Below the pieces are notes generated by a model that worked only from the letters and a program-made list of their open reading frames with translations, was not told the origin of the DNA and did no database searches. The position numbers were made by a program, and so were the translations under genes. Positions 4,010 through 45,050 of a stretch of DNA of 64,000 bases are shown piece after piece. This DNA is from Escherichia coli (GTDB lineage Bacteria > Pseudomonadota > Gammaproteobacteria > Enterobacterales > Enterobacteriaceae): NCBI RefSeq assembly GCF_003334305.1, contig NZ_QOWS01000002.1. The stretch is one strand, 5' to 3'. Each line of letters opens with the position of its first letter. Positions within the stretch are counted from its first letter, which is position 1.

Positions 4010-5041
4010 TTAGCGACCCTGTTCCGGCGGTGTAATGTTATCCATATACAGCGTCTGGCTGGGGAAGGCAAAGTCCGCGCCGTGTGACTGTACAATATCG
4101 ATAATCTTCAAATAAACGTCTTGCTGTGCAGCAAGCCATTCAGCCCATACCGTGGTTTTGGTAAAGCAATAAACCATAATATTCAATGACGAGTCGGCAA
4201 ACTGGTTGAAATAAACCAGTAAGGTTTGTCGCTGGTCGATGGCCGGGTGATTTTTCAGCATCTCACGTACGGCTTCGACAATAACGCCCACTTTTGCCGC
4301 ATCCTCATAACGTAAACCAATGGTCGTGGTAATGCGGCGGTTGGTCATTCGTCCTGGGTTTTCTACGCTGATCGACGAAAACAGCGAGTTCGGTACGTAC
4401 AATGGACGATTATCAAAGGTCGTAATTTTGGTAATTCGCCAGCCAATTTCCGCTACTGTACCTTCGATATTTCTGTCCGGTGAACGGATCCAGTCGCCAA
4501 TACTGAAAGGACGGTCGAAATAGAGCATGATCCCGGAAAAGAAATTACTCAGAATATCTTTACCGGCCATACCGACAGCCAGACCACCAATACCACCAAA
4601 GGTCAACAAGCCAGAAAGGCTCATGCCGAAATGTTCGCCATAAAGCAGAACAAGCACCACAATAATGGTGATTTTGATAATGCGCGACATAATCCGCGCA
4701 CTGGTGATATCGCGACCTTTTTTAATCTGCTGTTTTTCAAACTGATTAATCAGCAAAAATAGCTTAATCGTCAGAATAACCGCAATCAGGGACGTACAGA
4801 TAAAATCGATAACGCCTGGGGTGATAAATTTGAGTTTATAGTTTTCTATAACATAATTAATAATGCTACCAACAGCACTGATAATTATGGTGTAGATTAA
4901 AAATTGCACCGCATGGAATAAAAAACCTTTTCTTTTACGATTTCCGCGGCGAAACCAAAAGCTCATCAGAATCAATGCTGCGCAGCTACCGAAAATAATG
5001 ACCAGATTAAGCGCATTATTTGTAAACAGTTCAGCGATCAT
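4010..5041 (-). CDS. ynaI: MscS-family mechanosensitive channel YnaI
   Basis: 343-aa ORF, N-terminal TM helices plus MscS domain. Confidence 0.85.
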
Positions 5042-5284: not shown

Positions 5285-5542
5285 ATGATTATGGCGAAAC
5301 TGAAGTCAGCGAAAGGGAAGAAATTTCTCTTTGGTTTGTTGGCGGTTTTCATTATTGCGGCGTCGGTTGTGACTCGCGCGACTATCGGCGGCGTTATAGA
5401 ACAGTACAATATTCCGCTGTCTGAGTGGACGACATCAATGTATGTGATTCAGTCATCGATGATTTTTGTTTATAGCCTGGTCTTTACTGTGTTGCTGGCA
5501 ATCCCGTTGGGAATTTATTTCCTTGGCGGCGAAGAGCAGTAA
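5285..5542 (+). CDS. ynaJ: small inner-membrane protein YnaJ
   Basis: 85-aa ORF with two hydrophobic segments; synteny between ynaI and uspE. Confidence 0.7.
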   Translation: MIMAKLKSAKGKKFLFGLLAVFIIAASVVTRATIGGVIEQYNIPLSEWTTSMYVIQSSMIFVYSLVFTVLLAIPLGIYFLGGEEQ

Positions 5543-5591
5543 GTAAAAAATAGGCCCGATAACTCGGGCCTTGTCAGTTATTGAAGAGTCG

Positions 5592-6542
5592 TTAATCGTC
5601 TTCTTCGTCATCCAGTTCAACGGGTGTCTGATACTGGTCAGGTTTAATGACCAACAGATCGCAGCGAAGATGATCAATCACCTGTTCCGCCGTGTTGCCG
5701 AGGAATGCTGCTGAAATACCGGTGCGTCCTACCGTGCCCAGAACCACAATCCCCGCCTGTAAGTGCTCCGCCAAATCAGGAATCACCTCTTCTGGCAGAC
5801 CTTTTTCTACGTGCGTCATGTTTTCATTAATGCCGAATTTCTGCCGCAGAGCTTTCATTGCCAGCAAATGTTGCCCACGAATGGCATCGTTATAAACGCT
5901 CGGATCAAATTCCGGCAGTTCAATCGCGATATTAATTGGCGTTACCGGATAAGCGCCAACCAGATGAACTTCGGTATGGTTGACTTGTTCTGCCAGTTCG
6001 ATCGTCTCTTTGACCAGTTTTTCATTGAGCGCATTATGATACGGCTCTTCACTGGCGAGATTCACCGCCACCAGCGCCTTGCCTCCTTCCGGCCACGGCT
6101 GGTCTTTCACCATCCACACCGGGCTTGGGCATTTGCGTAACAGATGCCAGTCCGTTGGCGTAAAAATCACCGCTTCCAGACGGTCATGTTGGTGCGCCAT
6201 TTTTAGCACCAAATCGTGCCCGCCGCTGATCACTTCCTGAATGATGGCTTCGAAAGGACGGTTATGCCAGACCACTTTAATTTCAATGGGAACGCCAGCA
6301 TTGAGATAATATTTTGCCTGCTCGTGGATCCAGGCTGTACGCTGGCTGATGACGCCCTGACGCATAGCCGTACGTTCGTCCGGGGAGAGCAGGGTGGTCA
6401 TTTCGTATGAGAAGTCATAGATCGGCAAAAAGGCTTTAATTTTGCCACCAATCCGTTGATGTAAATAAACAGCTCGCCGCAATGCTGGTTGGTCGTCCTG
6501 GTTAGGATCGATAACAACGAGCATGTTCTGATACATAGCCAT
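5592..6542 (-). CDS. uspE: universal stress protein E (tandem Usp domains)
   Basis: Track ORF 5592-6569; start trimmed to [10 protein letters not shown] (316 aa). Confidence 0.85.
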
Positions 6543-6693
6543 ACAGGGTCTCCTTACAACAACTGTCAACGCAGTTTGTAATTAAAAGATTAACCCATAT
6601 CTGGTGAATGAAACAGTGATGAACCTTCTGCCAGATCAATAAATCAGAAAAATTTAATGATATGACAGAAGGATAGTGAGTTATGCGGAAAAA

Positions 6694-7446
6694 TCAGGCA
6701 ACATTACGCGTATGACCAGCAAGCTGGGCCAGCGCATCGTTATTTTCGATGGTGATGTATTTACCTTTGACTGCCAGCATACCGCTTTTCTGGAAGCGAC
6801 CTAGCAGACGGCTGATGGTTTCTACCGTCAGGCCCAGATAGTTACCGATATCGCCACGAGTCATCGTCAGGCGGAATTCACGAGGGGAGAAGCCGCGTTG
6901 GGCAAAACGACGGGACAGGTTGTAGATGAATGCAGCCAGACGTTCCTCGGCATTTTTCTTCGACAACAGCAGGATCATGTCCTGATCGCCTTTGATTTCA
7001 CCGCTCATCAGACGCATCATCTGCTGACGCAGATTCGGCATTTTACCGGACAAATCGTCCAGCGTTTCGAACGGGATTTCACATACCATCGAGGTTTCCA
7101 GCGCCTGAGCGAAGCTCGGGTGATGGCCGCTGCCGATGGCGTCAAATCCCACCAGGTCGCCTGCTAAATGGAAACCAGTGATTTGCTCGTCGCCTTGCTC
7201 AGTGATGGTATAACTTTTAATCGTACCGGAGCGGATGGCATAAAGCGATTTAAGTTCATCACCAGCCTTAAACAGCGTCTGGCCTTTCTGAATAGGCTTC
7301 TTCCGCTCAATGATATTATCAAGCTGATCAAGCTCATGTTCGTTGAGTGTGAACGGGATGCAAAGCTGGCTGATGCTGCAATCCTGGCAATGGATAGCAC
7401 AACCGCCAGACTGAATGCGCCGTATAATTCGCTTTTCCGGGATCAT
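6694..7446 (-). CDS. fnr: FNR, CRP-family anaerobic global regulator
   Basis: Track ORF 6694-7503; start trimmed to [10 protein letters not shown] (250 aa); Cys cluster CAIHCQDC present. Confidence 0.95.
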
Positions 7447-7465
7447 AGGTCTGCTCAAGCCGTAA

Positions 7466-7479
7466 TTGATATTTGTCAA
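7466..7479. promoter_or_regulatory. FNR-box-like inverted repeat TTGAT-N4-GTCAA just upstream of the fnr start (autoregulatory site)
   Basis: TTGATATTTGTCAA read at 7466-7479, 20 nt upstream of the fnr ATG (rc of 7444-7446). Confidence 0.55.
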
Positions 7480-7640
7480 TTTTAACATCTTTTTAGGGAG
7501 CAAGTAAGTCTAAGCAAACCTTAACAGCAGAGAATTCCGATATTAGATGTAAATATATGTCTATCTATTTGAAAACCCTTAAGTTGTTAAGGGTAACTTT
7601 ACATAAAAGTGTGAACAAGCTGGCACAAATTGTTTAATGT

Positions 7641-9729: not shown

Positions 9730-11175
9730 TTATTTTAAAGGTGACGGTGTCACGTTTTTCGGGATAGGGCAGTGATACGGTTGCGTGTCCGTAACTTGCT
9801 GATGCTCTTGTTGGCATTCTTGCAATAGCCCTGAATCAATGAAGAGATTGACTGTGGTTGCTGCCATAGTTTTCGCCGCCAGCAGCATTCCTTTATGAGC
9901 AATCGATGTTCGCCCCTGGCTAACCAGTTGCCACGTATGTAGCGGTGTACCGACGGCAAAACAGGGGCTGAAACACTGGGCAACAGGCAGTTTCCAACTG
10001 ACGTCGCCGACATCAGTCGATGCCGCAAGCACGTTATCGGTGGCGGCATATGGAGCGACCTCATTCGCCAGTACCGTTTCACGATGACGTAGTGCAAAAA
10101 CCTTGCCGTTTTCGCCACCGGTTGCGGCGATATTATTCAGACTGTTTTGCCGATCGTTGGGGGTGAGCGTAGCCTGAATTTGTTTCGCAAAAGCCAGTTC
10201 TTCGGAGTTCCATTCCGGGGTACCAAAATGGGATAGGGCATGGTACATGGCATTTTCTAAGGTGCGATTCGGGAGATAACTGGAACAGGCTTTGTCGAAG
10301 CGGCATTCAACCGTGGTTTCGGTCATCAATGCCGCACCTTCGGCGATTTTGGCGACCCGATCATAAATATGCTGCACGTCGGTCATTTCGGGGGCGCGGA
10401 TAAGATAAAGCACTTCTGCCTGCGCCTGGACCACGTTGGGCGAGATCCCGCCGCTATTTGTGATGGCATAGTGTACGCGCGCTTTTTCAATAATATGTTC
10501 GTTGAGGAAGTTGGTGCCAGTGGTCATCAACGTTACGGCATCAAGGGCGCTGCGTCCCAAATGAGGGGAATTCGCGGCATGTGCTGCGATCCCTTTAAAG
10601 CACCATGATGCCTGAATGTTTGCCAGCGTGCGGGTATTGAACATGCCGGCAAAGGCTTCCGGGTGCCAGGTGAGTGCCGCATCCACATCATCAAATACCC
10701 CCTCGCGGACCATGAACGTTTTACCCGAGCCGCCTTCTTCGCCAGGACAACCATAAAAGCGCACTGTGCCGCCTTGCCCATATTGTTCCAGCCATTTCTT
10801 GACGGCTATTGCAGCGGCAAAGGCGGCGGTTCCCAGCAAATTGTGTCCGCAACCGTGACCATTTTCACCGGGCGTCGCGGATGTAGGTTGCGCGCAACCA
10901 GCTTGCTGACTTAAACCTGCCAGGGCGTCATATTCTCCCAGCAGGGCGATAACCGGTTTGCCTTGACCAAACGAAGCAATAAATGCATTTGGGATATTGC
11001 CTACGTTGCGGGTAACGGTGAAGCTTGCAGATTCCAGCGCCGAAGCCAGATGCTCCGCTGACCAGAACTCTTCAAAACGTGTTTCTGGATGATCCCAGAT
11101 TTGATCGGCAATATCGGTATAACGTTGGCGATCGGCTTCAATCGCATCGTCGATAAAACGATAGATTTCCTGCAT
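9730..11175 (-). CDS. abgB: p-aminobenzoyl-glutamate hydrolase subunit B (M20 peptidase)
   Basis: 481-aa ORF; operon abgABT. Confidence 0.9.
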   Translation of the reverse strand: MQEIYRFIDDAIEADRQRYTDIADQIWDHPETRFEEFWSAEHLASALESASFTVTRNVGNIPNAFIASFGQGKPVIALLGEYDALAGLSQQAGCAQPTSATPGENGHGCGHNLLGTAAFAAAIAVKKWLEQYGQGGTVRFYGCPGEEGGSGKTFMVREGVFDDVDAALTWHPEAFAGMFNTRTLANIQASWCFKGIAAHAANSPHLGRSALDAVTLMTTGTNFLNEHIIEKARVHYAITNSGGISPNVVQAQAEVLYLIRAPEMTDVQHIYDRVAKIAEGAALMTETTVECRFDKACSSYLPNRTLENAMYHALSHFGTPEWNSEELAFAKQIQATLTPNDRQNSLNNIAATGGENGKVFALRHRETVLANEVAPYAATDNVLAASTDVGDVSWKLPVAQCFSPCFAVGTPLHTWQLVSQGRTSIAHKGMLLAAKTMAATTVNLFIDSGLLQECQQEHQQVTDTQPYHCPIPKNVTPSPLK

Positions 11176-12485
11176 CAGATACCTCGCGTCCAGGGAAAAT
11201 TGAGCGCGGTGCGCGCCAGCGTTTCGACGGCAATAGCGAGAACCTGCTCGTCAAAATCGAATTTTTCGTTGTGATGACCTGCCGCCAGCTGTGTGCCAAA
11301 CACCACGTAGGAGGCTTGCCCTTGATGTTGCTGCACGCGGGCCATCATTAATGTGGCATCTTCGGAACCCGCAGGCGCTTCAACACGTTCAATGGCCTGA
11401 TTGACCCCCGCGACCTGAGCCGCCTGACTTTGCAACCATGCGACCCATTGCGGCGAAGGAGAACTGGCGGTAGCTGCACCCATCAGACGAGTTTCAACGC
11501 CGACACCATACATGGTTGCTGCGCCCTGAATCGCTTGTTGTGCACGGTCAAAAACATATTGATTAATGACGTCGCTGGCCCCGCGTGTTTCCACTTTCAG
11601 CAACGCCGAGGCAGGAACAACGTTACGACCGCTTCCTGCCTGCATAACGCCCACGTTTACTCTGGAAGCTCCTTCGCTGTGCGGGGCGATTGCATGCAGT
11701 GCAAGAGTGGCTTGTGCTGCCGCCAACAAGGCATTGTGACCGTCTTCTGGTTTTGCGCCTGCGTGAGCGGCGGTACCGGTGAAGTGCGCGTCAAATTTGG
11801 TGGTTGCCATAAAATTATCACTGCCGCACACCACGGTGCCCGCAGGTACGCCAGTGCCAATGTGCACGGCAGTAAAATAATCAACATCATCTACGACACC
11901 TGCATCGACCATCGCCCGCGCGCCACGCGTACCTTCCTCTGCAGGCTGAAAAATCAGTTTGATGACGCCATGTAGTCCGGACTCGAATTGTTTAAGGGTA
12001 TGCGCCAGCCCAAGCCCAATGGCGGTATGTCCATCATGACCACAGGCATGCATCATTCCGGCGTTACATGACGCAAAACCGTCGCGGTAGGGGCGATGGC
12101 TGACATCCTGCTCTTCACTGAGATCCAGCGCGTCCATATCGACACGGAAAGCCATCACCGGACCGGGGCGACCGGTATCCAGGGTGGCGACGATACCAGT
12201 GAAACCACCTTCAAAAACCGCAATCCATTGTGCTAGCGCACCCTGTTGACGAGCGCGCTCGAATTCGCGTTGTAGAGTGAGTTCATCAGGTAGTCCCATC
12301 CGGCTACTTTCATTAACTACTTCGCGGCCCAGCGCCAGTGAATAGCCGAGCTGCTGCAATTCTTCCGCAACAAGGGTGGCAGTGCGGAATTCCACCCAGC
12401 CAGACTCTGCATAGTGATGAAAATCACGTCGCCAGTGCGATAATTTTGGGGCAAGCGAATTAACAAATTGATTCAAAGACTCCAT
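11175..12485 (-). CDS. abgA: p-aminobenzoyl-glutamate hydrolase subunit A (M20 peptidase)
   Basis: Track ORF 11175-12500; start trimmed to MESLNQ; stop overlaps abgB start. Confidence 0.9.
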   Translation of the reverse strand: MESLNQFVNSLAPKLSHWRRDFHHYAESGWVEFRTATLVAEELQQLGYSLALGREVVNESSRMGLPDELTLQREFERARQQGALAQWIAVFEGGFTGIVATLDTGRPGPVMAFRVDMDALDLSEEQDVSHRPYRDGFASCNAGMMHACGHDGHTAIGLGLAHTLKQFESGLHGVIKLIFQPAEEGTRGARAMVDAGVVDDVDYFTAVHIGTGVPAGTVVCGSDNFMATTKFDAHFTGTAAHAGAKPEDGHNALLAAAQATLALHAIAPHSEGASRVNVGVMQAGSGRNVVPASALLKVETRGASDVINQYVFDRAQQAIQGAATMYGVGVETRLMGAATASSPSPQWVAWLQSQAAQVAGVNQAIERVEAPAGSEDATLMMARVQQHQGQASYVVFGTQLAAGHHNEKFDFDEQVLAIAVETLARTALNFPWTRGI

Positions 12486-12544
12486 AACCTTTCCCGTCAT
12501 CAGTAAAAAGTGTGACCCGGTTCACGTAGCGATAGTTTTTACTT

Positions 12545-12557
12545 ATCACTAACTGAT
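12545..12557. promoter_or_regulatory. ATCA-N5-TGAT inverted repeat in the abgA/abgR divergent promoter region (candidate LysR-type box)
   Basis: ATCACTAACTGAT read in the 160-bp divergent intergenic region. Confidence 0.3.
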
Positions 12558-12660
12558 TTTTCACAGTTTTAACCGTTCATAAATTACCCTGACACAATCA
12601 TCTGCATTAAAGTAGATGCCAGTTTCTTTGGTCTGATAAATAACGGTTATCGGTGGCGTC

Positions 12661-13569
12661 ATGACTTTTCAGGTAAAAATTCATCAAATTCGTGCTTTTG
12701 TTGAAGTGGCTCGTCAGGGCAGCATTCGCGGAGCGAGCCGAATGTTGAATATGTCGCAACCGGCACTGAGTAAATCTATTCAGGAGCTGGAAGAAGGATT
12801 AGCGGCGCAACTCTTTTTTCGCCGTAGTAAAGGCGTGACGTTAACTGATGCCGGTGAAAGTTTTTATCAGCACGCCAGTCTTATTCTTGAAGAGCTGCGC
12901 GCAGCGCAAGAGGAAATTCGCCAACGACAAGGGCAACTGGCAGGGCAGATTAATATCGGCATGGGGGCCAGTATTTCCCGCAGTCTGATGCCAGCTGTCA
13001 TATCTCGTTTTCATCAGCAGCATCCGCAGGTAAAAGTACGCATTATGGAAGGGCAACTGGTGTCGATGATTAATGAATTGCGTCAGGGAGAATTGGATTT
13101 CACCATCAATACCTATTATCAGGGACCGTACGACCACGAATTTACTTTTGAGAAATTACTGGAAAAGCAATTCGCGATCTTTTGCCGCCCGGGACACCCC
13201 GCCATTGGTGCCCGTTCGATCAAACAGTTACTGGATTACAGCTGGACAATGCCGACGCCACACGGCAGTTACTACAAACAGTTGAGTGAATTGCTTGACG
13301 ATCAGGCGCAAACGCCACAGGTCGGTGTAGTCTGCGAGACGTTCTCAGCCTGTATCAGTCTGGTGGCAAAAAGCGATTTTCTCAGCATACTGCCTGAAGA
13401 AATGGGCTGCGATCCCTTGCACGGACAGGGGCTGGTGATGTTGCCGGTTAGCGAAATTTTACCGAAAGCGGCCTATTATTTGATTCAGCGGCGTGATAGT
13501 CGCCAGACACCACTGACCGCGTCATTAATCACGCAATTCCGGCGAGAATGCGGCTATCTGCAAAGTTAA
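12661..13569 (+). CDS. abgR: LysR-family regulator of the abg operon
   Basis: 302-aa ORF, divergent from abgA. Confidence 0.9.
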   Translation: MTFQVKIHQIRAFVEVARQGSIRGASRMLNMSQPALSKSIQELEEGLAAQLFFRRSKGVTLTDAGESFYQHASLILEELRAAQEEIRQRQGQLAGQINIGMGASISRSLMPAVISRFHQQHPQVKVRIMEGQLVSMINELRQGELDFTINTYYQGPYDHEFTFEKLLEKQFAIFCRPGHPAIGARSIKQLLDYSWTMPTPHGSYYKQLSELLDDQAQTPQVGVVCETFSACISLVAKSDFLSILPEEMGCDPLHGQGLVMLPVSEILPKAAYYLIQRRDSRQTPLTASLITQFRRECGYLQS

Positions 13570-32377: not shown

Positions 32378-33877
32378 ATGACAGAGCCGCATGTAGCAGT
32401 ATTAAGCCAGGTCCAACAGTTTCTCGATCGTCAACACGGTCTTTATATTGATGGTCGTCCTGGCCCCGCACAAAGTGAAAAACGGTTGGCGATCTTTGAT
32501 CCGGCCACCGGGCAAGAAATTGCGTCTACTGCTGATGCCAACGAAGCGGATGTAGATAACGCAGTCATGTCTGCCTGGCGGGCCTTTGTCTCGCGTCGCT
32601 GGGCCGGGCGATTACCCGCAGAGCGTGAACGTATTCTGCTACGTTTTGCCGATCTGGTGGAACAGCACAGTGAGGAGCTGGCGCAACTGGAAACCCTGGA
32701 GCAAGGCAAGTCAATTGCCATTTCCCGTGCTTTTGAAGTGGGCTGTACGCTGAACTGGATGCGTTATACCGCCGGGTTAACGACCAAAATCGCGGGTAAA
32801 ACGCTGGACTTGTCGATTCTCTTACCCCAGGGGGCGCGTTATCAGGCCTGGACGCGTAAAGAGCCGGTTGGCGTAGTGGCGGGAATTGTGCCATGGAACT
32901 TTCCGTTGATGATTGGTATGTGGAAGGTGATGCCAGCACTGGCAGCAGGCTGTTCAATCGTGATTAAGCCTTCGGAAACCACGCCACTGACGATGTTGCG
33001 CGTGGCGGAACTGGCCAGCGAGGCTGGTATCCCTGATGGCGTTTTTAATGTCGTCACCGGGTCAGGTGCTGTATGCGGCGCGGCCCTGACGTCACATCCT
33101 CATGTTGCGAAAATCAGTTTTACCGGTTCAACCGCGACGGGAAAAGGTATTGCCAGAACTGCTGCTGATCACTTAACGCGTGTAACGCTGGAACTGGGCG
33201 GTAAAAACCCGGCAATTGTATTAAAAGATGCTGATCCGCAATGGGTTATTGAAGGCTTGATGACCGGAAGCTTCCTGAATCAAGGGCAAGTATGCGCCGC
33301 CAGTTCGCGAATTTATATTGAAGCGCCGTTGTTTGACACGCTGGTTAGTGGATTTGAGCAGGCGGTAAAATCGTTGCAAGTGGGACCGGGGATGTCACCT
33401 GTTGCACAGATTAACCCTTTGGTTTCTCGTGCGCACTGCGACAAAGTGTGTTCATTCCTCGACGATGCGCAGGCACAGCAAGCAGAGCTGATTCGCGGGT
33501 CGAATGGACCAGCCGGAGAGGGGTATTATGTTGCGCCAACGCTGGTGGTAAATCCCGATGCTAAATTGCGCTTAACTCGTGAAGAGGTGTTTGGTCCGGT
33601 GGTAAACCTGGTGCGAGTAGCGGATGGAGAAGAGGCGTTACAACTGGCAAACGACACGGAATATGGCTTAACTGCCAGTGTCTGGACGCAAAATCTCTCC
33701 CAGGCTCTGGAATATAGCGATCGCTTACAGGCAGGGACGGTGTGGGTAAACAGCCATACCTTAATTGACGCTAACTTACCGTTTGGTGGGATGAAGCAGT
33801 CAGGAACGGGCCGTGATTTTGGCCCCGACTGGCTGGACGGTTGGTGTGAAACTAAGTCGGTGTGTGTACGGTATTAA
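32378..33877 (+). CDS. feaB: phenylacetaldehyde dehydrogenase
   Basis: Track ORF 32375-33877; start at MTEPHVAVL; aldehyde dehydrogenase motifs. Confidence 0.9.
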
Positions 33878-33893
33878 TCTGGTTCGCTCATAA

Positions 33894-33924
33894 GTAAAAA
33901 ACGGCACCTGGTGCCGTTTTTTTG
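33894..33924. terminator. bidirectional Rho-independent terminator between convergent feaB and tynA
   Basis: A5-ACGGCACC/GGTGCCGT-T7. Confidence 0.7.
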
Positions 33925-33934
33925 TCTGAAACAA

Positions 33935-36208
33935 TCACTTATCTTTCTTCAGCGCCCCTAGCGTTGGCGTTTCGTCAAAGAAGTTCCATGGTTTAAGCAG
34001 AGTATGTACCCATTCGGTCGGCATAATCGGCCACTCTTCGGCGCGGGCCACATGTGTGGTGCCGGTGGTCATCCAGACAACGGCGTCGGTGTTGTCCAGC
34101 GACTCGTTATCTTTACTGTATTGTCCAAGACCGGTGTCATGAGTAGAACGGTTCGGATATTTGCCTTCCGGGAAACGCTCGCCAGGATGATAACGCGTTA
34201 CCCAAAGCTGCTTGTCCATAAAGCTTAAACGATGATAGATCCACTCGTCCGGCGCGAACTGGGCACCTTTTGCTACCGGGTGAGTACCACCTGCATAAGG
34301 AATAATTTGATAGGAAACTGGATTGCCCATGCGGTTCTCTTTGTTCGGGTTACTCAACAGACGAATCGTGCCCGGATCAAACTTCTGCGCGGCATCCTGT
34401 TCATTGCCGATGTTGTACTGATTAACTTGCATGGTACTGGTGCGTGGGCCACCGGCAGTATTCGGTTTTACCACTGGGTCCATCGCCACCAGGCTGTTAT
34501 TCTCGCCATCTACATCCAGATCGAGGCGGAAATTATAAATATGTTGGTGTGTAGTACCCACGATATTGTGATCGATAAGCGTGCCGTAGCGCGTGTCATC
34601 TTTCGCCGTCTCATCGTGCATGGTTTTCGCTTTAACACCTTTCACCGCTTCGATGCCCGTAGCACCGGCATCAATGCCAATAGTGCCGTTTTCATGGAAG
34701 ATCCAGTCAAAAATGTAGTCATAGTTACCCACTGTACTGATCCAGCGCACCACTAACTCCCGGCGTTCGGTACTGACGTTGGGCTGGCCCATTTCCTGAT
34801 GCTTATACTCCGGCCCGGCATAACGTTCAAATACCGCGATAGCGCGAGGGATCTCCATCGGCACGCCAGTGTAGTCGGCGATGGTTTCATTAAGGAGCAC
34901 TGCGTTAGACGGGGCATCTTTACCACGAGCAATTGGTGAGGTTAGCGTGCCCATACCGTAGTCACCAGAGTCCAGATACGCTTTAAAGTACCAGCCAATA
35001 TCAGGATCACCGTAAGGCACAATCATGCCGCCGAGAGAACCTTCGTACATGACTTTGCGTTTGGTGCCATTGTCGTTATAAGTCACGGTGGAGATCATCG
35101 GCCCGACGCGAGAGTTCATGCTGAGGTGAAAATCCCAGTTCCGCCAGTGAATCATATCGCCAGTAATGGTGTAATTTTTACCTTCAGGCTCAATGATTTG
35201 CATAGGCTTAACTGCCGGAGCAACGCGGTCACGGCTATCAAATGGGCGTGCGGTCATTGGCACCGGAACTACCGGACCTTCTTCAATCTTAACGATTTTT
35301 TTCTGTTCTAAATCAACGACCGCCACCAGGTTTTCGATGGGATGTGCCCAGTAGTTGCCATCACCGACATCAAGATAGCTGATGACTTTGAGCAACCGGG
35401 CATCTTGTTTCAGGCCATCTTTACCATCGAAATAACCTACGGTCAGCGGCGTGGTAATCACTTTTTTCGCATCAGTAATACCGCGTTTCTTCACGGCAGC
35501 GGCAAATTCTTCACTGTTGTTAATAATGTTCTGCACACTGGCGAAATCATCCAGCAACACCATACCGTGGGCGTCTTTAATGGGTTGCCAGGAGAGCAGT
35601 TTGTTGTTTTGCAGATCCACCACCGCTTCGATGATATGTTTGCCGTCGAGCATAATGACGTCGGCTTTGCGCGGCTGGTCAACCGGTTTGTTTTCCAGCG
35701 CAAACGCCCAGACAGCTTCTTTATCTGGCGGTAGCAGGGAGATCTCAGTAAAACGGGTATTGGGTTTGAAGTCCGCGGAAGCTTTAACAATTTCAACGGC
35801 CTGTTTAATTTCGTCCGCAGTTAGCGCATTAAGTGGGTGAGGGCGCTTTTCTACCTGAAAGGTTTGATCCAGACCGGACTGGAAAACATCGTTAATAAAG
35901 GTGTCAGAAACCCAGGCCTTATTGTCTTTCATCACTACCGGCACTTGCAGTGCCAGAGGTTGACCATTAACAATTGCTGTTTGCGCACCAGGCTTCACTT
36001 TCACGTACGCGCCATCTTTAATCAGGGTAAAGATCTGGGCGTAGTCGTCCCACTGCACATCGGCACCAAATTCTTTAAGCGTTTCATCCATTGGCACCAT
36101 ATGCGCTTCACCACCGTGGGCAAATACCGGCGCTTGCCAGGCGAAACTTAAGGCGACTGCCAACGCCAGGGTTGTTTTACGGGCAGAATACAGAGAGGGG
36201 CTTCCCAT
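33935..36208 (-). CDS. tynA: periplasmic copper/topaquinone amine oxidase
   Basis: Track ORF 33935-36244; start trimmed to MGSPSLYSARKT (757 aa). Confidence 0.9.
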   Translation of the reverse strand: MGSPSLYSARKTTLALAVALSFAWQAPVFAHGGEAHMVPMDETLKEFGADVQWDDYAQIFTLIKDGAYVKVKPGAQTAIVNGQPLALQVPVVMKDNKAWVSDTFINDVFQSGLDQTFQVEKRPHPLNALTADEIKQAVEIVKASADFKPNTRFTEISLLPPDKEAVWAFALENKPVDQPRKADVIMLDGKHIIEAVVDLQNNKLLSWQPIKDAHGMVLLDDFASVQNIINNSEEFAAAVKKRGITDAKKVITTPLTVGYFDGKDGLKQDARLLKVISYLDVGDGNYWAHPIENLVAVVDLEQKKIVKIEEGPVVPVPMTARPFDSRDRVAPAVKPMQIIEPEGKNYTITGDMIHWRNWDFHLSMNSRVGPMISTVTYNDNGTKRKVMYEGSLGGMIVPYGDPDIGWYFKAYLDSGDYGMGTLTSPIARGKDAPSNAVLLNETIADYTGVPMEIPRAIAVFERYAGPEYKHQEMGQPNVSTERRELVVRWISTVGNYDYIFDWIFHENGTIGIDAGATGIEAVKGVKAKTMHDETAKDDTRYGTLIDHNIVGTTHQHIYNFRLDLDVDGENNSLVAMDPVVKPNTAGGPRTSTMQVNQYNIGNEQDAAQKFDPGTIRLLSNPNKENRMGNPVSYQIIPYAGGTHPVAKGAQFAPDEWIYHRLSFMDKQLWVTRYHPGERFPEGKYPNRSTHDTGLGQYSKDNESLDNTDAVVWMTTGTTHVARAEEWPIMPTEWVHTLLKPWNFFDETPTLGALKKDK

Positions 36209-36455
36209 TATTAACCTCGTCAGATGTTGTGTTCTTGTTAGCAACCGCGCTCTGTGGGCGGTTTAGTCAGGTTCACATTATCAGTACTGATGCAAAGGGG
36301 ATTGCCTGCACCTGCCAGGTTGTTTGGCAGGTGTGCCAGCTTTTCATACAGTGGGTGCCCTGAAAATAGATGTACACATCATGCATAATGTGACAACGTC
36401 ACAAAACTTAGTGAAATAAAAGGGCAACTATTGGCCGTTGCCCTTCATTCACCGA

Positions 36456-38099
36456 TTAATCGACAAAATCACCGTGCTGCCTGGCCACCAGCGTCAGAAT
36501 TGAATACAGCGCCACCGGGGTTTGATGCTGATTGAATACCTCTACCGCCCATTCCACCACACCTGTTGGTTTTTCTTCTGCGCTACGCTGTTTTTTCAGC
36601 GTCTTGCGCTTACAGGTGAGACGCACCTGGATGGTATCGCCTGGCTTTACGGGTTCGATAAAGCGCAAGTTTTCCAGCCCATAATTAGCAATGACCGGAC
36701 CGACACCGGCATCGACAAACAGACCCGCAGCCGCAGAAAGCACAAAATACCCATGCACCACACGCTCACCGAAAATAGATTCGGCAGCAGCAATCTTATC
36801 CATATGCGCATAGAAATGATCGCCGCTGAGGCAAGCAAAGTTAACAATATCGGCCTCTGTCATTGTGCGGCGGGGAGTCAGCAGGCTGTCGCCTGGTTGT
36901 AGCTCCTCAAAATATTTGCGGAACGGATGAATACGATCTTCTTCGACTTTCGCACCACGCACCCACTGTTTACTGATAGCTGCAAGCATCGTCGGACTAC
37001 CCTGAACAGCGGTTCGCTGCATGTAATGTTTCACCGCTCGTAAACCACCTAATTCTTCACCGCCTCCTGCGCGACCAGGCCCACCATGTAACAGTTGTGG
37101 CAGTGGGGAGCCATGCCCGGTGGATTCTTTTGCCGATTCCTCATTGAGGATCTGAATTCGCCCATGCGTACGTGCCGCGTCGGTAATAAACTGACGCGCA
37201 ATTTGCGGATCAGCCGTCACCAGCGTTCCCGCAAGGCTACCGCCGCCTGCACAAGCCAGTTGCAGAGCATGTCGCTGGTTTTGTGCTGGCATCAGCGTTG
37301 CGACAGGGCCAAAGGCTTCTGTTGCATGTACCGCCGGTGTTTCATCCGGCTGCGGACAGTACAATAAGGTTGGCGGGAAGAAGGCACCCGCAGCAGATAA
37401 ATCCGCCTGACCACCGAGGCGAATCTCGCATCCTGCAGCCAGCAATATGTTCACTTTTTCCTGCACATCGGCACGCTGCTCAGCATTTACCAGTGCGCCC
37501 ATTTTCACGCCTTCCTGAGCAGGATCACCGACCACGACTTTCTGTAATCGCGCAACCAGAGCATCACTGACAGCATTAACCAATGCCTGCGGCACAATAA
37601 TCCGCCGGATTGCCGTACATTTTTGCCCGGCTTTTGTGGTCATCTCACGCACAACTTCACGAATAAACAGCGCAAACTCCGGTTGATCCGGGGTGACATC
37701 TTCGCCCAGTACGCAGCAGTTCAGGGAATCAGCTTCCATAGTGAAGGGGATAGATTTGGCGACGATATTTGGCTGAACTCGCAGCATCTGTCCGGTCGCC
37801 GCTGACCCCGTGAAAGTCACCACATCCTGGCTGTCCAGATGATCCAAAAGGTCGCCCGCACTACCGCAGATCAGACTAATTGCGCCTTCGGGAACAAGAC
37901 CACTATCGACAATTGATTTCACCATCGCCTGAGTCAGTTGGGCCGTCGCGGTAGCTGGTTTGATGATGGCTGGCATTCCGCCCAGCCACGTTGGTGCCAG
38001 CTTTTCCAGCATTCCCCAGCAGGGGAAGTTAAAGGCGTTAATATGCACTGCCACGCCTGACTTTGAGGTCAGTACATGGCGCGCGGCAAATCCACCTTC
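36456..38099 (-). pseudogene. paaZ: paaZ, 5'-truncated (about 130 N-terminal codons missing)
   Basis: PaaZ-like frame continues upstream of the track GTG start (...[23 protein letters not shown]) and ends at an in-frame stop (rc TGA at 38100-38102) created at the junction; at most 548 codons versus about 681 recalled for intact PaaZ. Confidence 0.8.
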
Positions 38100-38100
38100 T

Positions 38101-39051
38101 CATTTGACCTTAAAAGCCAGTCTTGATGGTGAAGAATTACGCCGTTGTTACTCCATTTGCCGCAGCTACCTGCCTGGCGAAATTAGTGTGGCGGTGAAAG
38201 CCATTGAAGGCGGACGTTTCTCCCGCTATGCCCGCGAACACATCCGCCAGGGTATGACGCTGGAGGTCATGGTGCCGCAGGGGCATTTCGGCTATCAGCC
38301 ACAGGCCGAACGCCAGGGCCGCTATCTGGCTATTGCAGCAGGATCAGGTATTACGCCAATGCTGGCGATTATCGCCACCACTTTACAAACCGAGCCTGAA
38401 AGTCAGTTCACCCTGATCTACGGTAACCGTACCAGCCAGAGCATGATGTTTCGCCAGGCACTGGCAGACCTGAAAGACAAATATCCTCAGCGTTTACAGT
38501 TGTTGTGCATTTTCAGTCAGGAAACCCTCGACAGCGATCTGCTTCACGGGCGTATTGACGGTGAAAAATTACAGTCACTTGGGGCCTCGCTCATTAATTT
38601 TCGTCTTTATGATGAGGCATTTATTTGTGGTCCGGCGGCGATGATGGATGAGACGGAAGCCGCCTTAAAAGCACTGGGAATGCCAGATAAAACCATTCAT
38701 CTGGAGCGGTTTAATACGCCTGGCACGCGCGTCAAACGTAGCGTTAACGTGCAAAGTGACGGACAAAAAGTGACTGTACGTCAGGATGGGCGGGATCGGG
38801 AAATCGTGCTTAATGCCGACGATGAAAGCATTCTCGATGCGGCATTGCGCCAGGGGGCTGATCTGCCCTATGCCTGCAAAGGCGGCGTCTGTGCGACCTG
38901 CAAATGCAAAGTGCTGCGTGGCAAAGTGGCGATGGAAACCAATTACAGTCTGGAACCGGATGAACTGGCCGCAGGTTATGTGTTGAGTTGCCAGGCACTG
39001 CCGCTGACCAGCGATGTGGTGGTTGACTTTGACGCGAAGGGGATGGCATGA
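38101..39051 (+). pseudogene. paaE: paaE, 5'-truncated (about 40 N-terminal codons missing), fused in frame to antisense paaZ sequence
   Basis: PaaE-like sequence starts abruptly at HLTLKASLDGEELRRCYSICRS... at 38101; C-terminal 2Fe-2S motif (CKGGVCATCKC) intact. Confidence 0.8.
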
Positions 39052-39815
39052 GCGAACTGATCGTCAGCCGTCAGCAACAAGTATTGTTGCTGACCCTTAA
39101 CCGTCCCGCCGCACGTAATGCGCTAAATAATGCCCTTCTGACGCAACTGGTAAATGAACTGGAAGCTGCGGCTACCGATAGCAGCATTTCGGTCTGTGTG
39201 ATTACCGGTAATGCACGCTTTTTTGCCGCTGGGGCCGATCTCAACGAAATGGCAGAAAAAGATCTCGCGGCCACCTTAAACGATACACGTCCGCAGCTAT
39301 GGGCGCGATTGCAGGCCTTTAATAAACCACTTATCGCAGCCGTCAATGGTTACGCGCTTGGGGCGGGTTGCGAACTGGCATTGTTGTGCGATGTGGTGGT
39401 TGCCGGAGAGAACGCGCGTTTTGGGTTGCCGGAAATCACTCTCGGCATCATGCCAGGCGCAGGAGGAACGCAACGTTTAATCCGTAGTGTCGGTAAATCG
39501 TTAGCCAGCAAAATGGTGCTGAGCGGAGAAAGTATCACCGCTCAGCAAGCACAGCAGGCCGGGCTGGTTAGCGACGTCTTCCCCAGCGATTTAACCCTCG
39601 AATACGCCTTACAGCTGGCATCGAAAATGGCACGTCACTCGCCGCTGGCCTTACAAGCGGCAAAGCAAGCGCTGCGCCAGTCGCAGGAAGTGGCTTTGCA
39701 AGCCGGACTTGCCCAGGAGCGACAGTTATTCACCTTGCTGGCGGCAACAGAAGATCGTCATGAAGGCATCTCCGCTTTCTTACAAAAACGCACGCCCGAC
39801 TTTAAAGGACGCTAA
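39048..39815 (+). CDS. paaF: 2,3-dehydroadipyl-CoA hydratase (enoyl-CoA hydratase)
   Basis: 255-aa crotonase-fold ORF in paa synteny. Confidence 0.9.
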   Translation: MSELIVSRQQQVLLLTLNRPAARNALNNALLTQLVNELEAAATDSSISVCVITGNARFFAAGADLNEMAEKDLAATLNDTRPQLWARLQAFNKPLIAAVNGYALGAGCELALLCDVVVAGENARFGLPEITLGIMPGAGGTQRLIRSVGKSLASKMVLSGESITAQQAQQAGLVSDVFPSDLTLEYALQLASKMARHSPLALQAAKQALRQSQEVALQAGLAQERQLFTLLAATEDRHEGISAFLQKRTPDFKGR

Positions 39816-40603
39816 TGATGGAATTCATCCTCAGTCATGTAGAAAAGGGCGTGATGACACTAACGCTCAACCGCCCGGAACGCCTGAACAGTTTTAATGA
39901 TGAGATGCACGCACAACTGGCAGAGTGCCTGAAACAGGTCGAGCGCGACGACACTATCCGTTGCCTGTTACTTACAGGTGCCGGGCGCGGATTTTGTGCT
40001 GGTCAGGATCTTAACGATCGTAACGTTGATCCCACAGGCCCCGCACCGGATTTAGGGATGTCAGTTGAACGTTTCTATAACCCACTGGTACGTCGCCTGG
40101 CAAAACTGCCAAAACCGGTGATCTGTGCAGTCAATGGCGTGGCGGCAGGGGCAGGCGCAACACTGGCACTGGGGTGCGACATCGTTATTGCTGCCCGTTC
40201 AGCAAAATTCGTCATGGCGTTTAGTAAGTTAGGCTTAATACCCGATTGCGGTGGAACCTGGTTACTGCCACGCGTTGCTGGGCGAGCGCGCGCCATGGGG
40301 CTGGCACTGCTGGGGAATCAACTGAGTGCTGAACAGGCGCACGAATGGGGGATGATCTGGCAGGTTGTTGATGATGAAACGCTGGCAGATACCGCGCAAC
40401 AGCTGGCACGGCATCTGGCGACACAACCGACATTTGGTCTTGGACTTATCAAGCAAGCGATAAATAGCGCTGAAACCAATACGCTCGATACGCAACTGGA
40501 TCTGGAACGTGACTATCAGCGACTTGCCGGACGGAGCGCAGATTATCGTGAAGGTGTCAGTGCGTTCCTGGCTAAACGCTCACCGCAGTTCACGGGGAAA
40601 TAG
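39815..40603 (+). CDS. paaG: 1,2-epoxyphenylacetyl-CoA isomerase (crotonase family)
   Basis: 262-aa ORF, start overlaps paaF stop. Confidence 0.9.
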   Translation: MMEFILSHVEKGVMTLTLNRPERLNSFNDEMHAQLAECLKQVERDDTIRCLLLTGAGRGFCAGQDLNDRNVDPTGPAPDLGMSVERFYNPLVRRLAKLPKPVICAVNGVAAGAGATLALGCDIVIAARSAKFVMAFSKLGLIPDCGGTWLLPRVAGRARAMGLALLGNQLSAEQAHEWGMIWQVVDDETLADTAQQLARHLATQPTFGLGLIKQAINSAETNTLDTQLDLERDYQRLAGRSADYREGVSAFLAKRSPQFTGK

Positions 40604-40604
40604 C

Positions 40605-42032
40605 ATGATGATAAATGTGCAAACTGTGGCAGTGATTGGGAGCGGCACCATGGGGGCAGGCATTGCTGAAGTTGCCGCCAGTCATGGACATCAGGTTTTA
40701 CTGTATGACATTTCTGCTGAAGCGCTGACCCGCGCAATCGACGGGATACACGCGCGGCTAAATTCACGCGTGACGCGGGGAAAACTGACCGCTGAAACCT
40801 GTGAACGCACATTGAAACGCCTGATCCCGGTGACCGATATTCACGCGCTGGCAGCAGCGAATCTGGTTATTGAAGCGGCGTCTGAACGTCTGGAAGTTAA
40901 AAAAGCGCTCTTTGCACAACTGGCGGAAGTTTGCCCGCCACAAACGCTATTGACCACTAACACTTCGTCAATCTCTATAACCGCGATTGCTGCGGAGGTA
41001 AAAAATCCTGAACGTGTTGCGGGGCTGCATTTTTTTAACCCGGCACCGGTGATGAAGTTGGTGGAGGTGGTCAGTGGGCTGGCAACGGCAGCGGAAGTTG
41101 TCGAGCAGTTGTGTGAACTGACATTGAGTTGGGGTAAGCAGCCAGTGCGCTGTCATTCGACCCCCGGATTTATCGTTAACCGTGTTGCGCGTCCTTATTA
41201 TTCCGAGGCCTGGCGGGCACTGGAAGAGCAGGTTGCTGCACCAGAAGTGATTGACGCTGCACTTCGCGATGGCGCTGGTTTCCCGATGGGGCCGCTGGAA
41301 TTAACCGATCTGATTGGTCAGGACGTCAATTTTGCTGTCACCTGTTCGGTGTTTAACGCTTTCTGGCAGGAGCGTCGTTTTTTACCTTCGCTGGTGCAAC
41401 AGGAACTGGTGATTGGTGGACGGTTGGGCAAGAAAAGTGGGCTGGGCGTGTACGACTGGCGCGCGGAACGTGAGGCAGTTGTTGGCCTGGAAGCGGTAAG
41501 CGACAGTTTTAGCCCAATGAAAGTAGAAAAGAAAAGTGACGGTGTCACGGAAATTGACGATGTTTTATTGATTGAGACACAAGGCGAGACGGCACAGGCG
41601 CTGGCAACACGACTGGCGCGCCCGGTGGTAGTTATCGACAAAATGGCGGGCAAGGTGGTGACCATTGCTGCGGCAGCGGTGAACCCGGACTCAGCGACCC
41701 ACAAGGCCATTTATTACCTGCAACAGCAGGGCAAAACAGTGCTGCAAATTGCAGATTACCCAGGAATGCTGATTTGGCGAACGGTAGCAATGATCATCAA
41801 TGAAGCCCTTGATGCGCTGCAAAAAGGCGTGGCCTCTGAACAGGATATCGATACCGCCATGCGTCTTGGGGTGAATTATCCATATGGCCCGCTTGCCTGG
41901 GGAGCGCAACTTGGCTGGCAGCGAATATTAAGGCTCCTGGAAAATCTACAACATCACTATGGCGAAGAACGCTATCGCCCATGTTCATTGCTGCGCCAAC
42001 GGGCGCTTCTGGAGAGCGGTTATGAGTCATAA
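40605..42032 (+). CDS. paaH: 3-hydroxyadipyl-CoA dehydrogenase
   Basis: Track ORF 40509-42032; start trimmed to MMINVQTVAVIGSGTMG. Confidence 0.9.
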   Translation: MMINVQTVAVIGSGTMGAGIAEVAASHGHQVLLYDISAEALTRAIDGIHARLNSRVTRGKLTAETCERTLKRLIPVTDIHALAAANLVIEAASERLEVKKALFAQLAEVCPPQTLLTTNTSSISITAIAAEVKNPERVAGLHFFNPAPVMKLVEVVSGLATAAEVVEQLCELTLSWGKQPVRCHSTPGFIVNRVARPYYSEAWRALEEQVAAPEVIDAALRDGAGFPMGPLELTDLIGQDVNFAVTCSVFNAFWQERRFLPSLVQQELVIGGRLGKKSGLGVYDWRAEREAVVGLEAVSDSFSPMKVEKKSDGVTEIDDVLLIETQGETAQALATRLARPVVVIDKMAGKVVTIAAAAVNPDSATHKAIYYLQQQGKTVLQIADYPGMLIWRTVAMIINEALDALQKGVASEQDIDTAMRLGVNYPYGPLAWGAQLGWQRILRLLENLQHHYGEERYRPCSLLRQRALLESGYES

Positions 42033-42444
42033 GGCCTGGCAAAATGCCCATGCAATGTATGAGAACGATGCCTGCGCGAAAGCGCTTGGCATCGACATTA
42101 TCTCAATGGATGAAGGCTTTGCTGTAGTGACCATGACCGTCACTGTACAAATGCTTAATGGTCATCAAAGTTGCCACGGCGGGCAGCTATTTTCACTGGC
42201 TGATACTGCCTTTGCCTACGCCTGCAATAGCCAGGGGTTGGCAGCTGTCGCTTCTGCCTGCACGATTGATTTTTTACGTCCAGGCTTTGCCGGAGACACC
42301 TTAACTGCGACTGCGCAGGTTCGTCATCAGGGCAAGCAAACCGGTGTTTACGACATCGAAATTGTTAACCAACAACAAAAAACGGTTGCGCTGTTTCGCG
42401 GTAAATCTCACCGCATCGGCGGCACCATTATAGGAGAAGCCTGA
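42022..42444 (+). CDS. paaI: hot-dog-fold phenylacetyl-CoA thioesterase
   Basis: Track ORF 41959-42444; start trimmed to MSHKAWQ (140 aa). Confidence 0.85.
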   Translation: MSHKAWQNAHAMYENDACAKALGIDIISMDEGFAVVTMTVTVQMLNGHQSCHGGQLFSLADTAFAYACNSQGLAAVASACTIDFLRPGFAGDTLTATAQVRHQGKQTGVYDIEIVNQQQKTVALFRGKSHRIGGTIIGEA

Positions 42445-43649
42445 TGCGTGAAGCCTTTATTTGTGACGGAATTCGTACGCCAATTGGTCGCTACGGCGGG
42501 GCATTATCAGGTGTTCGGGCTGATGATCTGGCTGCTATCCCTTTGCGGGAACTGCTGGTGCGAAACCCGCGTCTCGATGCGGAGTGTATCGATGATGTGA
42601 TCCTCGGCTGTGCTAATCAGGCGGGAGAAGATAACCGTAACGTAGCCCGGATGGCGACTTTACTGGCGGGGCTGCCGCAGAGTGTTTCCGGCACAACCAT
42701 TAACCGCTTGTGTGGTTCCGGGCTGGACGCACTGGGGTTCGCCGCACGGGCGATTAAAGCGGGCGATGGCGATTTGCTGATCGCTGGTGGCGTGGAGTCA
42801 ATGTCTCGGGCACCGTTTGTTATGGGCAAGGCAACCAGTGCATTTTCTCGTCAGGCTGAGATGTTTGATACCACTATTGGCTGGCGATTTGTGAACCCGC
42901 TCATGGCTCAACAATTTGGAACTGACAGCATGCCGGAAACGGCAGAGAATGTAGCTGAACTGTTAAAAATCTCGCGAGAAGATCAAGATAGTTTTGCGCT
43001 ACGCAGTCAGCAACGTACGGCAAAAGCGCAATCCTCAGGCATTCTGGCTGAGGAGATTGTTCCGGTTGTGTTGAAAAACAAGAAAGGCGTTGTAACAGAA
43101 ATACAACATGATGAGCATCTGCGCCCGGAAACGACGCTGGAACAGTTACGTGGGTTAAAAGCACCGTTTCGTGCCAATGGGGTGATTACCGCAGGCAATG
43201 CCTCCGGGGTGAATGACGGAGCCGCTGCGTTGATTATTGCCAGTGAACAGATGGCAGCAGCGCAAGGACTGACGCCGCGGGCGCGTATCGTAGCCATGGC
43301 AACCGCCGGGGTGGAACCGCGTCTGATGGGGCTTGGTCCGGTGCCTGCAACTCGCCGGGTGCTGGAACGCGCGGGGCTGAGTATTCACGATATGGACGTG
43401 ATTGAATTGAACGAAGCGTTCGCGGCCCAGGCGTTGGGTGTACTACGCGAATTGGGGCTGCCTGATGATGCCCCACATGTTAACCCCAACGGAGGCGCTA
43501 TCGCCTTAGGCCATCCGTTGGGAATGAGTGGTGCCCGCCTGGCACTGGCTGCCAGCCATGAGCTGCATCGGCGTAACGGTCGTTACGCATTATGCACCAT
43601 GTGCATCGGTGTCGGTCAGGGCATCGCCATGATTCTGGAGCGTGTTTGA
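42444..43649 (+). CDS. paaJ: 3-oxoadipyl-CoA / 3-oxo-5,6-dehydrosuberyl-CoA thiolase
   Basis: 401-aa thiolase ORF. Confidence 0.9.
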
Positions 43650-43675
43650 GCATATCAACCTGCGAGTACCCTACA

Positions 43676-44989
43676 ATGATAACCAATACAAAGCTTGACC
43701 CGATTGAAACCGCGTCTGTTGATGAGTTACAGGCGTTGCAAACACAGCGTCTGAAATGGACGCTCAAACACGCGTATGAAAATGTCCCGATGTATCGGCG
43801 CAAATTCGACGCAGCAGGCGTACATCCTGATGATTTCAGGGAACTTTCAGACCTGCGTAAATTTCCCTGTACCACCAAACAGGATCTGCGCGACAACTAT
43901 CCCTTTGACACCTTTGCCGTGCCGATGGAACAAGTGGTGCGCATTCATGCTTCTTCGGGAACCACAGGTAAACCGACAGTTGTCGGTTATACGCAAAACG
44001 ATATTGATAACTGGGCCAATATTGTAGCGCGTTCTTTGCGTGCGGCAGGGGGCTCGCCCAAAGACAAAATTCATGTTGCCTATGGTTACGGCCTGTTTAC
44101 TGGTGGGCTGGGCGCGCACTATGGTGCCGAACGTCTGGGCGCTACGGTGATCCCGATGTCTGGCGGGCAGACGGAAAAACAAGCGCAACTGATCCGCGAT
44201 TTTCAACCAGATATGATCATGGTTACGCCATCTTATTGCCTTAACCTGATTGAAGAGCTGGAGCGGCAGTTGGGCGGTGATGCCAGCGGTTGCTCGCTGC
44301 GGGTTGGCGTGTTTGGTGCTGAGCCGTGGACACAGGCCATGCGTAAAGAGATTGAACGGCGTCTGGGGATCACCGCACTGGATATTTATGGCCTGTCAGA
44401 AGTGATGGGGCCGGGGGTGGCGATGGAGTGTCTGGAAACTACCGACGGTCCAACTATTTGGGAAGATCATTTCTATCCTGAAATTGTTAATCCTCATGAC
44501 GGCACACCGCTTGCCGATGGTGAACATGGCGAACTGTTATTCACCACGCTGACCAAAGAAGCATTGCCGGTCATTCGTTACCGCACGCGTGATTTAACCC
44601 GACTGTTACCAGGAACGGCGCGGACTATGCGCCGCATGGATCGCATCAGCGGACGCAGCGATGACATGTTGATTATTCGCGGTGTAAATGTCTTTCCGTC
44701 ACAACTGGAAGAAGAGATTGTCAAATTCGAACATTTATCGCCGCATTACCAACTGGAGGTGAACCGCCGGGGGCATCTTGATTCACTTTCTGTGAAAGTG
44801 GAGTTGAAAGAAAGTAGCCTGACATTGACGCATGAGCAGCGTTGCCAGGTATGCCACCAGCTGCGCCATCGGATTAAGTCGATGGTGGGGATCTCTACCG
44901 ATGTGATGATCGTTAACTGTGGCAGTATCCCGCGTTCAGAAGGCAAGGCGTGTCGGGTGTTTGATCTGCGCAATATTGTTGGTGCCTGA
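43676..44989 (+). CDS. paaK: phenylacetate-CoA ligase
   Basis: Track ORF 43592-44989; start trimmed to MITNTKLDP (437 aa). Confidence 0.9.
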   Translation: MITNTKLDPIETASVDELQALQTQRLKWTLKHAYENVPMYRRKFDAAGVHPDDFRELSDLRKFPCTTKQDLRDNYPFDTFAVPMEQVVRIHASSGTTGKPTVVGYTQNDIDNWANIVARSLRAAGGSPKDKIHVAYGYGLFTGGLGAHYGAERLGATVIPMSGGQTEKQAQLIRDFQPDMIMVTPSYCLNLIEELERQLGGDASGCSLRVGVFGAEPWTQAMRKEIERRLGITALDIYGLSEVMGPGVAMECLETTDGPTIWEDHFYPEIVNPHDGTPLADGEHGELLFTTLTKEALPVIRYRTRDLTRLLPGTARTMRRMDRISGRSDDMLIIRGVNVFPSQLEEEIVKFEHLSPHYQLEVNRRGHLDSLSVKVELKESSLTLTHEQRCQVCHQLRHRIKSMVGISTDVMIVNCGSIPRSEGKACRVFDLRNIVGA

Positions 44990-45050
44990 CGTGTCGTCTG
45001 GCCCTGGTGAGGTAAAGCGTCAGGGCCAGAAGTCGATACGACCTGTGCTA

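Follow-up and report, generated by a model that had tools for sequence, protein, structure and literature searches.

The 363-codon open reading frame (ORF) at positions 37960–39051 (+ strand) of the 64,000-nt stretch of Escherichia coli DNA analyzed here (the window) is very probably no more than what one very recent illegitimate deletion of 3,308 bp left behind, a pseudogene remnant without function in strain A7 and its clone. It is an ordinary deletion scar of little biological weight. The preliminary description had likewise taken the ORF for an artefact of a deletion and not for a real gene, and comparison with related genomes bears this out: the locus differs from that of an intact relative in lacking a single uninterrupted stretch of 3,308 bp.

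The window carries the usual E. coli gene content of this region (ycjY…fnr…ldhA…feaRB-tynA-paa…hrpA…gap) and corresponds to positions 2238024–2302023 of the complete genome of E. coli A7 (orangutan faeces, USA; NZ_CP028767.1), to which the 9.2-kb locus under study (33500–42700) is identical. Between pgrR and mppA, the automated annotation (PGAP) marks a further pseudogene, a 93-bp internal fragment of a queH-like (epoxyqueuosine reductase) gene at 2107–2199.

BLAST of window positions 36001–40000 against the intact paa locus of IAI1 yields two abutting pieces: 36001–38100 match locus positions 5502–7601 (tynA–paaZ), and 38101–40000 match 10910–12809 (paaE–paaF). The deletion junction therefore lies at 38100|38101, and against both IAI1 and A28 it is blunt, with 0 bp of microhomology, no filler, and 3,308 bp missing. 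The missing block comprises paaZ nt 1–401, the 284-bp paaZ–paaA intergenic region with the divergent Pz/Pa promoters and their operators, all of paaA, paaB, paaC, and paaD, and paaE nt 1–120 (codons 1–40). A search of 40 bp around each breakpoint for microhomology and for direct or inverted repeats found none beyond chance 6-mers. Because the junction is blunt, without shared bases, filler, or repeats, it points to an illegitimate, homology-independent event.

Five complete genomes (A28, TUM1887, strain 41, TUM12355, and NCTC9088) match the 11.1 kb flanking the junction (query, window 33900–45000) at 100.0% in two pieces, the matches spanning 14,409 bp, or 11,101 + 3,308. In A28 (echidna, Australia) the flanks are base-for-base identical over 4,201 bp to the left and 6,900 bp to the right, with exactly 3,308 bp between them that are absent from the window; a comparison of 17.7 kb of flanks shows three SNPs between A7 and A28. 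Downstream, paaF–K, paaX, and paaY are annotated as intact, and several of their protein accessions are common to A28. With an intact locus and near-identical flanks in A28, and with the downstream paa genes still whole, the deletion is, to judge from these comparisons, very recent. The three SNPs lie at 32820 (feaB), 45787 (paaX), and 48030 (ydbD), and two of them change an amino acid, FeaB P148L and PaaX I233S, in genes that both belong to the phenylethylamine/phenylacetate route. These could reflect relaxed selection after loss of the pathway, or coincidence, there being only three SNPs in all.

The ORF itself was correctly delimited in the preliminary description as a frame of 363 aa in which 47 antisense-paaZ codons are fused in frame to PaaE, as the ORF listing and BLAST against IAI1 and A28 confirm. 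It ends at a TGA (39049–39051) and opens with a cluster of three possible start codons, TTG at 37960 and ATG at 37963 and 37966. Its first 141 nt (37960–38100, + strand; 38101 minus 37960) lie opposite paaZ nt 542–402, in IAI1 paaZ coordinates, and form a non-homologous N-terminal extension in frame with paaE codon 41 (HLTLKAS…), whose first base is the right breakpoint; this breakpoint thus falls on a codon boundary. The remainder (38101–39051, + strand) is paaE codons 41–356 plus the stop codon, and the 316 C-terminal residues (48–363) are identical to A28 PaaE 41–356. The nearest upstream in-frame stop is a TGA at 37930, leaving 56 codons open before the junction. When all in-frame left breakpoints within antisense paaZ were enumerated, 12% left 47 codons or more between a start and the junction, and 54% supplied some in-frame start codon. 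The extension is no longer than chance allows, and the existence of a 363-codon ORF follows from the chance placing of the two breakpoints. Exact 363-, 362-, and 361-aa versions of the protein are absent from the protein collection searched, where the PGAP model of 336 aa is the only form.

On the other side of the junction, paaZ survives as a remnant lacking nt 1–401, its first 134 codons (36456–38100, − strand; flagged by PGAP as a pseudogene at 36456–38099). Its longest start-to-stop ORF (36456–38054, − strand) begins at an internal GTG and encodes 532 aa, with an aldehyde dehydrogenase domain that is largely kept but lacks its N-terminus and a complete C-terminal hydratase domain; the Pz promoter is lost. 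A reciprocal minus-strand chimera, running from paaZ into antisense paaE, was considered and rejected, as the paaZ frame meets a TGA immediately past the junction.

Intact E. coli PaaE is the reductase subunit of 1,2-phenylacetyl-CoA epoxidase (TIGR02160), in which an FAD/NAD(P)H reductase is followed, at the C-terminus, by a fused 2Fe-2S ferredoxin domain of the plant type. The preliminary description had noted that the PaaE part of the ORF carries the C-terminal ferredoxin cysteine cluster; the ferredoxin end is indeed present, but the retained part is wider, amounting to 89% of the protein. By Pfam, both NAD_binding_1 (residues 125–232 of the chimera, E 1.4e-15) and Fer2 (274–348, E 1e-19) are complete and identical in sequence to intact PaaE, and the RxYS flavin, GxGxxP, and Cys4 motifs are all kept. 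What differs is the N-terminus: residues 1–40, which hold FAD_binding_6 positions 1–33 of 99, are replaced by 47 unrelated residues, so that the domain (PF00970) is incomplete and is matched over model positions 34–99 of 99 at 30.5 bits, versus 2–99 at 46.9 bits in the intact protein. Against TIGR02160 the chimera scores 527.3 bits over profile positions 35–352 of 352, above the curated NCBIfam cut-off of 420.8, versus 591.9 bits over 1–352 for the intact A28 protein. The FAD-binding domain of the ferredoxin-NADP reductase superfamily is a six-stranded beta-barrel; with its first third swapped for unrelated sequence, both flavin binding and folding should be impaired. A single-sequence AlphaFold2 model of the chimeric protein, made with no alignment, has a mean pLDDT of 36 and a pTM of 0.31, too low to be informative. 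A sequence search of the PDB found no solved PaaE, the nearest entries being distant FNR-family reductases (5ogx, 7c3a, 1krh, 2pia). The sole known role of PaaE is to donate electrons to PaaABC (PMC9493321), and these oxygenase partners are absent from A7, since paaABCD lies inside the deletion.

Transcription of the catabolic paa genes of E. coli starts from Pz and Pa, a divergent pair in the paaZ–paaA intergenic region and the only promoters described for them (PMC9493321), and a K-12 RNA-seq compendium assembles paaA–paaY as one unit. In A7 the native Pa promoter, ribosome-binding site, and start codon of paaE are deleted, and upstream of the chimeric ORF the + strand holds only antisense paaZ and antisense tynA. 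Crude consensus scans for promoters on the + strand at 36250–38110 found two sites at a 9/12 threshold, versus 2.5–4.4 expected from shuffled sequences, both at 36324–36389, 1.57 kb upstream of the ORF; a relaxed scan of the same interval found six weak sites, versus 8.1 ± 3.8 expected, the nearest some 590 nt upstream of the start. Predicted pairing with the anti-Shine-Dalgarno (SD) sequence is −3.0 kcal/mol for the starts at 37960, 37963, and 37966, close to the median of −2.2 for all start triplets in the window; native paa genes range from −4.3 to −9.3. Among the entries covered from the Tjaden K-12 compendium table of unannotated transcripts, which is truncated, none has coordinates within 1,443,046–1,453,643; this speaks neither for nor against antisense transcription there.

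The nearest + strand gene from which transcription might reach the junction is feaB. Between it and the convergent tynA lies a clear bidirectional intrinsic terminator (33896–33923; A6-CGGCACCTGGTGCCG-T7, with a 6–7 bp GC stem), recognized from the sequence and by RNAfold (−18.2 kcal/mol for 33870–33945), which would block read-through from feaB. It was missed by an automated terminator scan. Within the native part of paaE there is also a GGAGG (38262–38266), 2 nt before an ATG at 38269 and 5 nt before a GTG at 38272, with a pairing energy of −10.0 kcal/mol for the GTG. It is found in intact alleles as well, and was not made by the deletion. Given any mRNA, initiation at this GTG could in principle yield a shorter product made up of the NAD-binding and Fer2 domains alone. 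At its 3′ end the chimeric ORF overlaps the start of an intact paaF (39048–39815, + strand) by ATGA, the native arrangement for translational coupling.

The suggestion in the preliminary description that a stable, shortened reductase or ferredoxin might still be made from the ORF thus finds no backing in the sequence: promoter, ribosome-binding site, and start codon are deleted, promoter-like sites upstream do not exceed chance, SD pairing is weak, the FAD-binding domain has lost one third, and PaaABC is no longer there as partner. From these features it is inferred that the scar is probably neither transcribed nor translated, and that any product would probably be unstable.

The junction is rare. 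Its flanks are found in 3,157 of 5,426 complete E. coli genomes, and the junction in only one of these, A7, which is also the sole complete genome to match the full 1.2 kb around the ORF at 100%. Of the deleted block, 80% or more is present in 3,118 genomes, so that some 39 of the 3,157 paa-positive genomes carry less than 80% of the 3.3-kb segment and have some other lesion there. One of the sporadic losses in this cluster is closely similar: in E. coli HS-01 (NZ_CP172817.1) a 5′-truncated paaZ is joined to a 5′-truncated paaE, with loss of paaABCD and the Pz/Pa region. Its breakpoints are independent of those in A7, however, running from the window equivalent of 37883 to 38424 with a 5-bp filler, TTGGA (HS-01 locus 4383–4389), and its paaE remnant is flagged by PGAP as a pseudogene, whereas that of A7 is long enough to escape the flag. 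In A65EC (NZ_CP182331.1), another sporadic deletion in the paa cluster has apparently joined paaZ to paaH. A separate NCBI assembly, GCA_012531235.1 (contig DABAWS010000004.1, 192 kb), has the identical junction, with no mismatches to the window over 13 kb. It is one of four assemblies that carry the exact 336-aa PGAP protein, each on one contig, under the NCBI accessions HAH2841094.1, HAH8986097.1, RCQ13258.1, and UMT20676.1; these could be separate isolates or one strain re-sequenced.

That protein, WP_097343874.1, is what RefSeq annotates as “paaE” at 38041–39051 (+ strand), modelled from an ATA codon (38041–38043). It carries no pseudogene flag, while the neighboring paaZ remnant is correctly flagged; it escapes because 89% of the length is kept and the family HMM score is over the cut-off. 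The missing flag and the score above the cut-off favor taking the RefSeq model at face value, as a bona fide, slightly shorter paaE starting at ATA, but this reading is hardly credible. Translation in E. coli starts only very poorly at ATA; residues 1–20 of the model are read from antisense paaZ and have no homology to PaaE, and the TIGR02160 match begins at profile position 35; and the native start, ribosome-binding site, promoter, and partner genes are deleted. The annotation is an artefact.

The other alternatives concern whether the junction is real and whether anything is made from it. That it is an assembly error, the paa cluster being in fact intact, might be supposed from its occurrence in one complete genome only. 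This is very improbable: the breakpoints share no sequence and there are no repeats on which an assembly could collapse, the 336-aa protein stands under four accessions on as many contigs, and an assembly artefact was rejected outright on finding the same junction in a second assembly, GCA_012531235.1. The second alternative is expression. The whole chimera, or a part of it begun at an internal start, could conceivably be transcribed from a cryptic antisense promoter and translated, with coupling to paaF, into a soluble protein of the flavin/2Fe-2S or ferredoxin-like type that retains some diaphorase or electron-carrier activity. The intact NAD_binding_1 and Fer2 domains and the retained motifs, the preserved ATGA overlap, the internal GGAGG ahead of GTG 38272, and the persistence of the allele in four assemblies would all fit. 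On the other hand, promoter-like sites are no more frequent than expected by chance and the starts pair with the anti-SD sequence no better than background, unrelated sequence takes the place of the opening third of the FAD-binding domain and the PaaABC acceptor is gone, and the new N-terminus is limited to one clone; with no mismatches over 13 kb within that clone, persistence of the allele is uninformative as to selection. On balance an expressed protein of this kind is improbable. Somewhat less credence still is due to a version in which low-level antisense or read-through transcription across the scar gives either a partnerless NAD(P)H/2Fe-2S protein or, by way of ATGA coupling, constitutive production of the β-oxidation-like PaaF–K enzymes free of PaaX control. 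An expressed chimera would count as a small instance of a fusion protein born by rearrangement. Functional ORFs of that class are known (the cytoplasmic male sterility, or CMS, ORFs of plant mitochondria; gene birth from antisense sequence), and they resemble the present case in that a new N-terminal segment from a non-coding frame is fused to part of a gene; the A7 chimera differs in having, as far as its sequence tells, no signs of expression, conservation, or selection, being confined to one clone without divergence.

Some observations do weigh against the interpretation as a pseudogene remnant. The antisense transcription that goes on at a low level throughout the E. coli genome could extend over the junction, and if an mRNA exists, the internal GGAGG could start a shorter product. 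As many as 316 of 356 PaaE residues are kept, with all cofactor motifs and a TIGR02160 score of 527 bits, and in related proteins the NAD-binding and Fer2 domains can fold autonomously. The pseudogene interpretation nevertheless remains by far the best account. One blunt, homology-free deletion removed the 5′ end of paaZ, the Pz/Pa region, paaABCD, and codons 1–40 of paaE; its right breakpoint fell on a paaE codon boundary, and its left in an open antisense-paaZ frame provided with TTG-ATG-ATG, both by chance. The resulting ORF is left with neither promoter nor recognizable ribosome-binding site, and with neither a complete flavin-binding domain nor an oxygenase partner. The most likely outcome is no meaningful expression and no function, with the whole paa catabolic pathway of the strain dead. 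In practical terms, RefSeq catalogues the scar product as an apparently intact PaaE, and since it is so listed, surveys of pathway presence that count PaaE hits would over-call it. For the organism, the A7 deletion adds a commensal clone to the E. coli lineages in which phenylacetate catabolism has been sporadically lost.
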